Origin: Enterobacteria phage Kha5h
Strand: one strand, 5' to 3'
Sequence record: NC_054905.1
DNA: 64,000 nucleotides
Part shown: in pieces, positions 11,058 through 63,439 of the stretch
Position numbering within the stretch: position 1 is the first letter of the stretch
Layout of the letters: every line of letters begins with the position of its first letter
The notes under the pieces: model-generated
The model's input: only the letters and a program-made list of their open reading frames with translations
What the model was told of the DNA's origin: nothing
The model's database searches: none
Position numbers and translations under genes: made by a program

Positions 11058-11222
11058 TTACTCTTCTTTTTCTTTAGATTCCTCTTTTTTCTTTTTAGGA
11101 ATCTGCTCAGGGCCTTTATTTACTACAGCGCCTGACGTTGTTCCAGTAGAGATATTTTCAGGATTACCACCTGAATCTCCAGCGACCATATCTTCTTTAA
11201 TAAATTCTTTATATGTTTTCAT
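11058..11222 (-). CDS. small ORF (54 aa) with internal-protein-like N-terminus
   Basis: MKTYKEFIKE start resembles capsid targeting sequence; Lys/Glu-rich tail; 2 nt from gene 61 ATG. Confidence 0.4.
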   Translation of the reverse strand: MKTYKEFIKEDMVAGDSGGNPENISTGTTSGAVVNKGPEQIPKKKKEESKEKEE

Positions 11223-54323: not shown

Positions 54324-54704
54324 TCAATTAGAAAATAAATTTATCCAAGATTGTTCTTTAATTAAAAATGGCTCAGAATCATATGCCATTAAACTTTGGG
54401 TAATTAGTCCTTTAAAAGGCCCATCAATAAATTCCATGGTAAAATATGGAATTTTATTCATTAATCTTGCATTAGGAGCAGTACACAAAACTCTGCATCC
54501 TTTGAATACGCCTTTTTGTAATTTGTATTGCTTAGGATAAAATTCGCTCAAGACGTTGTTATTTGCCAAAATTTCAAAATGATTCACCAATTTATTTTTA
54601 ATAGTTTTTGGCGAAAAATAAAGATATTCGAAAAGTTGCGTGTCTGTCATCATTGCATTCCGATTATGAAAAACTGTGGACGAGTAATACCACCAATGCA
54701 ACAC
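54324..54704 (-). CDS. hypothetical protein (start probably internal)
   Basis: Track ORF 126 aa. Confidence 0.45.
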   Translation of the reverse strand: MLHWWYYSSTVFHNRNAMMTDTQLFEYLYFSPKTIKNKLVNHFEILANNNVLSEFYPKQYKLQKGVFKGCRVLCTAPNARLMNKIPYFTMEFIDGPFKGLITQSLMAYDSEPFLIKEQSWINLFSN

Positions 54705-55237
54705 TTGCTATTACAACAGTAATGTACAGTTTCAATATGAATATTGTAAATTTTATCCATATCAGGAGATTTAACAGGCTCATCAATTATATACAAAATC
54801 CGCGAAAGCGATAAACCTCTGAACTTGCTTCCTTTATTACCGATAAAACTACGGACAGAATCGGTAAATAAGCGGAATCGAATATCATCGCTAGAATAAC
54901 GAGAAAATTCTTTTTTAATGTGGCCCGCAGAAATTTTAGCGTAAGCTGAAGTATTAGAAAGAACAATAACTGTTCCACCATCATACAGCCAATTAGCAGC
55001 AAAGTTAGTCACAGCAGTTGATTTACCGGATTGTCTGCCACCATCTAATCGAAGTGTGCAATACTGCTTGAGTAAGTCTTCAAATGGTGGGATATAATCG
55101 TTTTTACAAATTTCTTCTACTCTAGCATCAGAATGGTGTGTAAAAGCATTCATCAGGGATAGATAAGGACCAGTTAAAAATGTTCTCATTTTATTCTCTC
55201 TAAATTTGGGCCATTCCATGGCGCATGAATTGTCCAT
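54650..55237 (-). CDS. small P-loop NTPase
   Basis: Walker A GGRQSGKST, Walker B-like ILYIIDEP; C-terminal CCNSKCC. Confidence 0.5.
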   Translation of the reverse strand: MDNSCAMEWPKFRENKMRTFLTGPYLSLMNAFTHHSDARVEEICKNDYIPPFEDLLKQYCTLRLDGGRQSGKSTAVTNFAANWLYDGGTVIVLSNTSAYAKISAGHIKKEFSRYSSDDIRFRLFTDSVRSFIGNKGSKFRGLSLSRILYIIDEPVKSPDMDKIYNIHIETVHYCCNSKCCIGGITRPQFFIIGMQ

Positions 55238-55342
55238 TTCTGTATTTACCCATTACCGCACTTGGGCTCGACCTTATTACAGGTTGGCGGGAATCCCTCA
55301 TAGAATCATGAGGTCCAGCTTGTTCCCATATTTCTTATTTGC

Positions 55343-55816
55343 TTATTTGAATGATTTGACGTACTGAATAGAACCTTTACTATTCACGAAAGCGATTTTA
55401 CCATTTTTATTATACATGGTAGCAGTACGCTGATAGCCATAAGTTTGTTTACCAGATTGATAACCAACTAATGCGAAATTATCTTCACCCATTTTATTCT
55501 GTTTAGCGCGAATACGTTCATGACCGTGTGCCATAAGAACCTTAGCATCACCAGTTGAAATTGATCTACGAGTTTTTTCATCTTCAACTGTATTAACAAA
55601 GTCGTCAAATGAATCAAATTTAGCATGGGATTTATTATACAGTTTTCCATCTACTGCATAATTATATCCCTGTACATCCATCTCAACTTCTGTACCATCA
55701 TCCAATACAGCAGTGATTTTTTGACCTTTTTTAAATTTCAAAAGATCAGTAAAAGATTCAGCAATAATTTGAGAATTAATAGCTGCTTCAGTGATAAATT
55801 CTTGATATGTTTTCAT
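55343..55816 (-). CDS. internal-protein-like packaged protein
   Basis: 157 aa; N-terminus MKTYQEFITEA matches capsid targeting sequence of T4 internal proteins. Confidence 0.55.
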   Translation of the reverse strand: MKTYQEFITEAAINSQIIAESFTDLLKFKKGQKITAVLDDGTEVEMDVQGYNYAVDGKLYNKSHAKFDSFDDFVNTVEDEKTRRSISTGDAKVLMAHGHERIRAKQNKMGEDNFALVGYQSGKQTYGYQRTATMYNKNGKIAFVNSKGSIQYVKSFK

Positions 55817-55825
55817 ATGTTTCCT

Positions 55826-56242
55826 TTAAATGTAAATATTTTTGCCGTAATACTTGTACCAGTGTGGCTTCATTAAAATTTTTTCATCGAGTCGTTGTTG
55901 ACTCAATTTAATAGCTGATTTGCATGGATTATAATCATTTTTCCATTCTGCTGGAATATCGCTGATGTCAGGAACTTCAGTATCTTTTATACTAAACCCA
56001 CGTTTTAAGCATTCCGTTATAATGTCTGATTGACGCTTTCGCAAAAATTCTAACTTATCGTAAAAGAACGTAACATGACCAGAGCCTAAAATAAACTCGG
56101 AAGATATTTTAAAATCTTTAACCCGCTTACCATTTGCCACATGTTTACGAACTATACCAAAAACACGCGGCAATTCACGATACTCAGCCATAAGATGTTG
56201 GTCGGTCAGTTCAGAAACAAGTGTTAAATTGATACGAGTCAT
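55826..56242 (-). CDS. denV: endonuclease V (pyrimidine-dimer glycosylase) DenV
   Basis: 138 aa from [12 protein letters not shown]; SD GGAGG 5 nt upstream. Confidence 0.9.
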
Positions 56243-56300: not shown

Positions 56301-57541
<1,241 letters not shown>

Positions 57542-62764: not shown

Positions 62765-62837
62765 CTGGGAATAAAGGACTCGAACCTTTGCATCTAGCAG
62801 TCAAAGTGCTATGCCTTACCAACTTGGCTAATTCCCA
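62765..62837 (-). tRNA. tRNA-Gln (anticodon UUG), CCA not encoded
   Basis: Acceptor UGGGAAU/AUUCCCA; 1 nt from tRNA-Leu 5' end (dimeric precursor as in T4). Confidence 0.75.
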
Positions 62838-62916
62838 ATTATTAACAAAGGCTCTCAAACAAGAACCCTTGATGATAGAGGGTATTAATCAGTGCGGTAT
62901 GAGTTAATAATAACAA

Positions 62917-62941
62917 ATAATTCTTAAAGCAAATTAAACAT
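62917..62941 (-). promoter_or_regulatory. middle promoter (MotA box + TATTAT) reading into the tRNA cluster
   Basis: TGCTTTA then 12 nt then TATTAT, about 80 nt upstream of tRNA-Gln. Confidence 0.45.
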
Positions 62942-63439
62942 TTTAACAGTCGGCAAAACAATTTCTTTTTCTATATAAGAGTATTTAACACTCTCAACTA
63001 CACGCAGAAAATCATAATCATAATATTCAGAAGCACTGCCTAAAATATTAATAAGTCCTTCAAACACTTTATTACCATTCACAAAGAATAAGTCAAATAC
63101 ACGTTCTTCATCTTCTTCAGATTTATTACCAAGGTCAACTTCTATATCAAAGACCTTTTTAATGAATTCTGGATAAAGCTGGTCTGAGAACAGTCCTTCA
63201 ACCAAGTATTCATAAATAAAAAGCGATTGCTCGCTGAACAAGCCATTACCACAATAACGTTCAACTTTTGTGCTAGAATGTCTGCTTTTAAACTTCTTTA
63301 AAAGATATTGGAATTGTAAGATTTCATGCTCTTCTACACCAAACAGTGTTTTAGTTTTATAGTTGTCACCATCATTTTCCCAGGTAGTGACATCAATTAC
63401 GTAACCCTGCGGAATTGTAGTACCTAAACAAATATTCAT
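62924..63439 (-). CDS. hypothetical protein
   Basis: Track ORF 171 aa. Confidence 0.5.
   Translation of the reverse strand: MNICLGTTIPQGYVIDVTTWENDGDNYKTKTLFGVEEHEILQFQYLLKKFKSRHSSTKVERYCGNGLFSEQSLFIYEYLVEGLFSDQLYPEFIKKVFDIEVDLGNKSEEDEERVFDLFFVNGNKVFEGLINILGSASEYYDYDFLRVVESVKYSYIEKEIVLPTVKMFNLL

Follow-up and report, generated by a model that had tools for sequence, protein, structure and literature searches.

Ip4, an interchangeable internal-protein cargo of T-even phages, is probably a packaged and injected counter-defence protein

We analyzed an ATG-initiated open reading frame (55343..55816, minus strand) that encodes a protein of 157 aa with the N-terminus MKTYQEFITEAAINS. The window, to which coordinates refer unless another record is named, is the whole 64-kb stretch of DNA that was analyzed. 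An earlier note on this DNA had singled out the same frame, starting MKTYQEFITEA, and it is present there with its ATG start. On the coding strand the neighborhood reads nudE, e, a gene for a 93-aa protein with a capsid targeting sequence (CTS), denV, ip4 and vs.8. The features are listed below by increasing coordinate, with a slash marking each predicted cleavage.

54650..55237, minus strand: vs.8 homolog, the next gene downstream of ip4 (PHROG 1488; annotation of phage ime09).
55238..55322, minus strand: conserved segment of higher G+C content at which the ip4 cassette ends on its right-hand side (homology shared by T4, T2 and the window).
55343..55816, minus strand: ip4 coding sequence (IpIV, internal head protein 4; DUF7412, PHROG 3155, ime09 annotation, exact UniRef match).
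55757..55786, minus strand: residues 11-20, AAINSQIIAE, ending at the second predicted protease site IAE/S (invariant E20; profile alignment with IPI).
55787..55816, minus strand: CTS, residues 1-10, MKTYQEFITE, ending at ITE/A (identity to the T4 IPII and IPIII leader; invariant E10).
55817..55843, minus strand: 27-nt leader AAAAATATTTACATTTAAAGGAAACAT with a Shine-Dalgarno sequence; the final codons of denV and its stop are contained in it as well (identity to the sequence upstream of T4 ipII).
55826..56242, minus strand: denV, endonuclease V, a pyrimidine dimer glycosylase (Pyr_excise, PHROG 1183; ime09 and Kelasse annotation).
56301..56582, minus strand: 93-aa CTS protein, an internal head protein of the RB69ORF127c type (PHROG 3499 at 1.4e-46; cluster names).
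56579..57067, minus strand: e, T4-type lysozyme (Pfam Phage_lysozyme; ime09).
57081-57088 and 57094-57101, minus strand: two T4 late-promoter motifs TATAAATA upstream of e (motif search).

The 157-aa protein belongs to a family that is already named. The DUF7412 profile (PF24183) covers it at full length with 1.3e-95 and 318.2 bits (curated Pfam cut-off 27 bits), aligning protein residues 1-157 with profile positions 1-158. PHROG 3155, "internal virion protein", matches at 1.1e-101, and matches to other internal-protein PHROGs are confined to residues 1-14 or 1-21. UniRef holds the exact sequence under the name "Internal head protein 4", and a near-identical member of the same cluster is the T2 "IpIV internal head protein". 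The Ip4 protein of phage K3 (UniProt Q38388) is 98% identical and is the sole structural neighbor in the viral structure library; the gene is annotated as Ip4 in ime09 and RB51 and as ipIV or ip4 in T2 records. The description of the protein as a variant, put forward in the earlier note, is therefore superseded by an existing name. The T2 record AP018813.1 departs from this usage: there ip4 (2501-2974) is mis-annotated as "valyl tRNA synthetase modifier", and several small ORFs nearby have acquired by transfer names that can hardly be right (tail sheath, major capsid protein), so that the annotation of this record is unreliable.

By tblastn the Ip4 protein is present in 469 phage records, including T2, K3, RB3, RB27, RB51 and ime09. 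Identity is at least 95% in 305 of them (among these T2, RB3, RB27, RB51, fD1 and pSs-1) and at least 99% in 225, which are Tequatrovirus, while about 160 T4-like phages of Klebsiella, Salmonella and Raoultella carry Ip4 at 67-71% identity. A 3-kb stretch around ip4 is 99.5% identical to vB_EcoM_Kelasse and 97.8% identical to ime09, and the window is that of a Tequatrovirus. The assignment of the gene to ip4, a member of the CTS-bearing internal-protein family, is as good as certain.

The gene orders across the interval between e and vs.8, read on the coding strand with IP93 standing for the 93-aa gene, compare as follows.

T4: e-ipIII-ipII-denV-vs.8.
T2: e-ip4, then the vs.8 region; without denV.
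fD1: e-denV-ip4-vs.8.
ime09, Kelasse and the window: e-IP93-denV-ip4-vs.8.
Klebsiella phage KP182 and Salmonella phage Melville: e-ip4, then another internal-protein gene.

The placement of ip4 thus varies among T2, fD1, ime09 and the phages of Klebsiella and Salmonella, and its position in the window is one of several known arrangements of a shuffled locus. Repoila and colleagues reportedly gave the extra ORFs the names ip4 to ip10 and regarded the conserved leader, with the sequence upstream, as a possible means of shuffling. According to PMC2839356 and PMC12373910, which cite Repoila et al. (1994), the interval from e to vs.8 is one of two highly variable internal-protein loci. At least 80% of a 200-nt probe spanning the junction of denV and ip4 is covered in about 163 phage records, and the ATGA junction of e and IP93 is covered in about 237; both counts are approximate, as nearby pieces were joined into one match. 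The T4 order given in the earlier note, denV-ipII-ipIII-e, agrees with the T4 genome. Its placement of ip4 upstream of denV reverses the direction of transcription, since on the coding strand ip4 lies downstream (3'), 9 nt past the denV stop. Nor is the locus new or non-canonical: the same interval holds ipII and ipIII in T4, and the order in ime09 is identical. As the note had stated, no ipIII lies between e and the gene that it took for ipII; the 64-kb window contains no homolog of mature T4 IPI, IPII or IPIII, and yields only matches of leader length.

The gene next to e had been taken for ipII. The observation behind this, an ATGA overlap of the e stop with the start of the adjoining gene, holds, but the adjoining gene encodes the 93-aa protein, which has only the 11-residue leader in common with T4 IPII and belongs to PHROG 3499, T4 IPII being PHROG 7857. 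An assignment to ipII was rejected on these grounds. The mature part of the 93-aa protein has a pI of about 6.3 and a net charge of 0, unlike the basic mature forms of IPI, IPII, IPIII and Ip4.

The ip4 cassette has clean boundaries. T4 and the window cease to be homologous at the end of denV, and T4 lacks ip4. All three sequences, those of T4, T2 and the window, become homologous again at GGGAACAAsCTGGACCTCATGATT, directly behind the stop codon of denV in T4 but of ip4 in T2 and the window. From about 13 nt before the ip4 ATG through the conserved downstream segment, T2 and the window are collinear. Further upstream they have different affiliations: the 27 nt before the ATG in the window (AAAAATATTTACATTTAAAGGAAACAT) are identical to the 27 nt before T4 ipII, whereas T2 ip4 is preceded by 60 nt that match the leader of T4 ipIII almost completely. 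The same cargo therefore lies behind two leader cassettes, of the ipII type in the window and of the ipIII type in T2. The leader cassette supplies the end of denV, four codons and the stop (..K NIYI and stop; 55826-55843, minus strand), in a form identical to the sequence upstream of T4 ipII; T4 denV itself ends in ..K AIYA and stop, for which the DNA is similar but not the same. It appears that the cassette junction has given DenV of the window lineage a new C-terminus. An end of denV inside the leader, together with one cargo behind two leaders, is consistent with recombination across the leader and CTS that these genes share; the literature explains the polymorphism of this locus in that way. 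The ip4 gene is an interchangeable internal-protein cargo gene of T-even phages.

On the far side of the cassette, the segment of roughly 100 nt after ip4 (55238-55342, minus strand) has a G+C content of 0.45-0.48, compared with about 0.33 nearby, and is about 96% conserved with T4 and T2. The T4 annotation makes this segment the first ~40 codons of vs.8 (MRDSRQPVIRSS...). In the window the vs.8 frame is closed within it by a TAG and an 8-nt deletion, and vs.8 must therefore start further downstream. Either the annotation of the long vs.8 start in T4 is wrong, or something else keeps the segment conserved, such as a role as recombination boundary. A structured RNA or tRNA remnant was considered for the segment and rejected: ARAGORN reported none, Rfam gave nothing credible and the fold z-score was -0.26.

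The first 11 residues of Ip4 match those of T4 IPII and IPIII (MKTYQEFIAEA) at 10 positions, and the ten residues of the CTS match at nine. Six-frame translation of the window contains the loose CTS pattern M[KR][TS][YF]x[ED]F at three places, all of them initiator Met positions of real ORFs, whereas 200 shuffles gave 0.01 occurrences on average. The likeness is thus not due to chance, and the CTS that the earlier note had recognized in this protein is borne out. The T4 prohead protease gp21 cuts at Leu/Ile-x-Glu followed by a small residue. Two such positions of Ip4, E10 (ITE/A) and E20 (IAE/S), are invariant in all 14 aligned family members, which range from 60 to 99% identity, and in the profile alignment E20 aligns with the ITE/A site that closes the 19-residue propeptide of T4 IPI. 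Ip4 would accordingly pair the 10-residue site of IPII and IPIII with a second, IPI-like site, both being predicted points of cleavage. The unprocessed protein is predicted to yield the N-terminal peptide TYQEFITEAAINSQIIAESFTDLLK, and the cleaved forms to start with AAINSQIIAESFTDLLK from A11 and SFTDLLK from S21. At the level of sequence, Ip4 has the features of a T4-type internal protein: a CTS, protease sites at the end of the leader and a place in a polymorphic internal-protein locus as a dispensable cassette.

The third CTS-like leader of the window, MKTYKEFIKE/DMVAGDSGGNPENISTGTTSGAVVNKGPEQIPKKKKEESKEKEE, belongs to a 54-aa ORF (11058-11222, minus strand) that is the ortholog of T4 gene 61.1 (PHROG 1823). 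It adjoins the primase gene 61, far from both internal-protein loci, and the remainder of the protein is of low complexity and rich in Lys and Glu. If it is packaged and cut after E10, it would leave a 44-residue head peptide. We found no annotation of this ortholog as an internal protein.

The N-terminus of Ip4 could also be a mere scar of recombination, carried by a protein that stays in the cytoplasm early or late in infection and is never packaged. The leader and CTS region is clearly a substrate of recombination, and ip4 lies directly behind the early gene denV. A scar, however, would hardly account for the maintenance of the leader and both Glu sites in relatives at 60-99% identity, or for the related leader MNFxxFLNES, which persists at about 35% identity. 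Since this leader persists where DNA homology is gone, selection at the level of the peptide is indicated. In T4, the first 10 residues of IPIII suffice for incorporation into the head, and they package foreign proteins as well (PMC9026906). Direct detection comes from virions of the Yersinia phage fD1: at the strict LC-MS/MS threshold, the product of its gene g129 (62785-63258; 157 aa, 17.8 kDa) was scored "Head protein, PPAP" (PMC8309999 Table S3), and this ORF (Gp129) is 99.4% identical to the window Ip4. The fD1 study has low specificity, however, since it counted 113-137 of the 277 phage proteins, together with 672 proteins of the host, as particle-associated, DenV and lysozyme among them (PMC8309999); this speaks for an unpackaged protein. 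We regard the fD1 detection as supportive, not decisive, for packaging, and give an unpackaged cytoplasmic protein a very slim chance. The earlier description of the gene as encoding an internal protein stands: the protein has a CTS and, after it, a prohead-protease site, its gene occupies an internal-protein locus, and an ortholog that is nearly identical was detected in virions. We consider it highly probable that Ip4 is packaged and injected.

The arrangement of promoters is compatible with production at the time of head assembly. T4 has the same pair of late promoters before e and none directly before ipIII or ipII. Between e and ip4 the window has no TATAAATA within one mismatch that could serve as a dedicated late promoter of ip4; one match with at most one mismatch falls within the ip4 reading frame. 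A search of the minus strand from the late promoters of e to the end of ip4 gave no terminator-like site. Because the late promoters of e are co-oriented with these genes, no terminator intervenes and the T4 layout is the same, late co-transcription of e-IP93-denV-ip4 is plausible. An element GTTTAC...TACTAT is located between IP93 and denV; we take it to resemble the consensus of T4 early promoters, in which case expression would occur early as well.

The mature part aligns with none of IPI, IPII and IPIII by BLASTP or tblastn, the leader being the only part that aligns. An apparent similarity of the N-terminal half of Ip4 to mature IPI was rejected, as the hhalign probability of 85% with the leader drops below 1% when the leader is removed; a BLASTP match to IPI (E = 3e-4 over residues 1-57) and a match to PHROG 4363 (0.007) had suggested it too, and a Pfam search gave no match to PF11634 (IPI). 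A HMMER profile search against 1.84 billion representatives returned eight matches, comprising the narrow family and three metagenomic relatives (E = 1e-17 to 1e-22). The three metagenomic proteins carry the variant leader MNFxxFLNES, and in one of them the mature domain has 35% identity to that of Ip4. The long matches among the eight (P0019 and P0021) were discarded as repeat artefacts. Distant DUF7412 relatives on two short metagenome contigs (L008, 181-654; L009, 712-1215) have 34-37% identity to Ip4 and the leader MNF(E/K)(Q/D)FLNES. Neither contig has a match in the phage genome collection. These relatives suggest that uncultured phages carry cargo akin to Ip4 behind another type of targeting leader. 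An adjacency of denV and ip4 on L009 was considered and dismissed: the upstream gene is PHROG 624, with a weak Pyr_excise match and no BLASTP similarity to denV.

Sixteen positions are invariant among close and distant relatives (G31, V48, G50, K58, N61, K62, A65, L94, N107, K108, A115, Q120, G122, G127, Y128 and T131), and they comprise only Gly, Val, Lys, Asn, Ala, Leu, Gln, Tyr and Thr. The enterobacterial subfamily is additionally invariant at H64, H99, R101, E111, D112 and N113. Such a set of polar residues could belong to an enzyme that is injected and modifies some component of the host, as Alt, the packaged ADP-ribosyltransferase of T4, does, rather than to a stoichiometric inhibitor, and an activity would be compatible with a fold that lacks matches. 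In the relatives at 34-37% identity (P0015, P0016 and P0017), however, the polar residues are not kept, H64, H99, E111 and D112 among them, and the mature domain has no match to any enzyme in Pfam, PDB or fold searches, nor a PDB fold match of any kind. Because distant relatives do not keep the invariant His, Asp and Glu of the subfamily, a binding protein is favored, and an enzyme appears very improbable.

The mature protein, whether it comprises residues 11-157 or 21-157, is predicted to have a mass of 16.5 or 15.5 kDa, a pI of 9.1-9.3 and 17 Lys, and the mature IPI, IPII and IPIII of T4 are basic too, with a pI of 9.0-9.7. Its basic character would suit a generic counter-ion or packing protein, packaged by way of its CTS, that neutralizes the charge of DNA or aids packaging or ejection and has no specific target. 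The great uniformity of Ip4 within Tequatrovirus would agree with such a role, as would tests published in 2025 in which Ip4 to Ip10, expressed in E. coli, gave no reproducible inhibition of further active GmrSD variants (PMC12373910, Supplementary Fig. 9). Three equally basic T4 internal proteins, however, all proved to be specific inhibitors: Ip1, Ip2 and Ip3 each block one distinct GmrSD type IV restriction enzyme, without cross-protection (PMC12373910). The growth of T4 on ECOR17 needs IPIII, and IPIII supplied in the cell works without its CTS (PMC9391042). Moreover, ip4 is dispensable, patchy in distribution and absent from T4, which fits a host-range function better than a structural need, and the co-resident 93-aa internal protein is not basic, so that charge is not a shared requirement. 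We therefore consider a generic DNA-packing role improbable, although less so than an enzyme or an unpackaged protein.

The preferred reading is that Ip4 is a packaged, protease-processed and injected protein that binds a host defence protein, and we put its probability at roughly 0.75. Ip4 would be made late, and probably also early from the denV promoter. Residues 1-10 would dock onto the scaffolding core of the prohead, and gp21 would cut after E10 and probably after E20 as well, so that a basic protein of 15.5-16.5 kDa, with a pI of about 9.2 and 17 Lys, would remain with the DNA in the head. On infection of the next host, Ip4 would leave the head together with the DNA and most likely bind and block a defence protein that attacks the incoming glucosyl-hmC DNA. 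By analogy with Ip1-3, the target may be a subtype of the GmrSD family or a comparable first-response nuclease. Processing, injection and the class of the target are inferred, injection from T4 Ip1-3. That Ip4 is a specific anti-defence binder is the part towards which we lean with some reserve, and a target within the GmrSD family in particular is a tentative proposal by analogy, which has failed once already for Ip4 in the negative tests of Ip4 to Ip10. A fold without relatives and these negative results also allow an injected inhibitor with a fold not seen before that acts on a first-response defence other than GmrSD. We hold this to be rather unlikely; if true, it would extend the T-even internal proteins beyond the inhibition of type IV restriction.

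The phrase "candidate injected counter-defence protein", which the earlier note had applied to Ip4, coincides with the working hypothesis of the field for all internal proteins (PMC3012670, PMC12373910). The gene, its name, its leader, the locus, the variable placement and the counter-defence hypothesis are published or annotated already. New here are the second conserved processing site, the finding of neither a fold relative nor a conserved catalytic residue, and the occurrence of ip4 behind leaders of both the ipII and the ipIII type. Our literature search found no functional study of Ip4 or DUF7412, and none after PMC12373910. The target of Ip4 is a question that the field already recognizes and pursues. 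Carriers include T2 and several hundred sequenced T-even, Klebsiella and Salmonella phages, many of them therapy candidates, and identifying the host defence that Ip4 neutralizes would aid the prediction of host range.

Among known systems, the GmrSD-inhibitor families Ip1, Ip2 and Ip3 are the functional models, although the mature domain of Ip4 has no detectable sequence or fold homology to them; Ip4 probably works in much the same manner nonetheless. T4 IPI (Ip1; PF11634), the inhibitor of GmrSD(CT596), resembles Ip4 in its CTS-type leader, its small size and its basic character, and its E19 site aligns with E20 of Ip4; it differs in that no homology is left without the leader and in that its gene occupies the other internal-protein locus, beside 57B. 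The T4 proteins IPII and IPIII, which inhibit GmrSD(ECOR21) and GmrSD(ECOR17), respectively, share with Ip4 the 10-residue CTS, a site of the ITE/A or IAE/A type, the e-to-vs.8 locus, the leader cassettes and basic mature proteins, whereas the mature domains are unrelated in sequence and fall into different PHROGs. The RB69ORF127c-type neighbor is, like Ip4, a CTS protein, encoded in the same locus of the same phage, but its mature part is unrelated and of near-neutral pI, and its gene abuts e. The closest counterpart is the Ip4/IpIV of T-even phages, which is the same gene as that of the window, with 98-100% amino acid identity and a full-length family match. In T2 this gene, the sole internal-protein gene of the locus there, lies directly after e, behind an ipIII-type leader, whereas in the window it lies after denV, behind an ipII-type leader.
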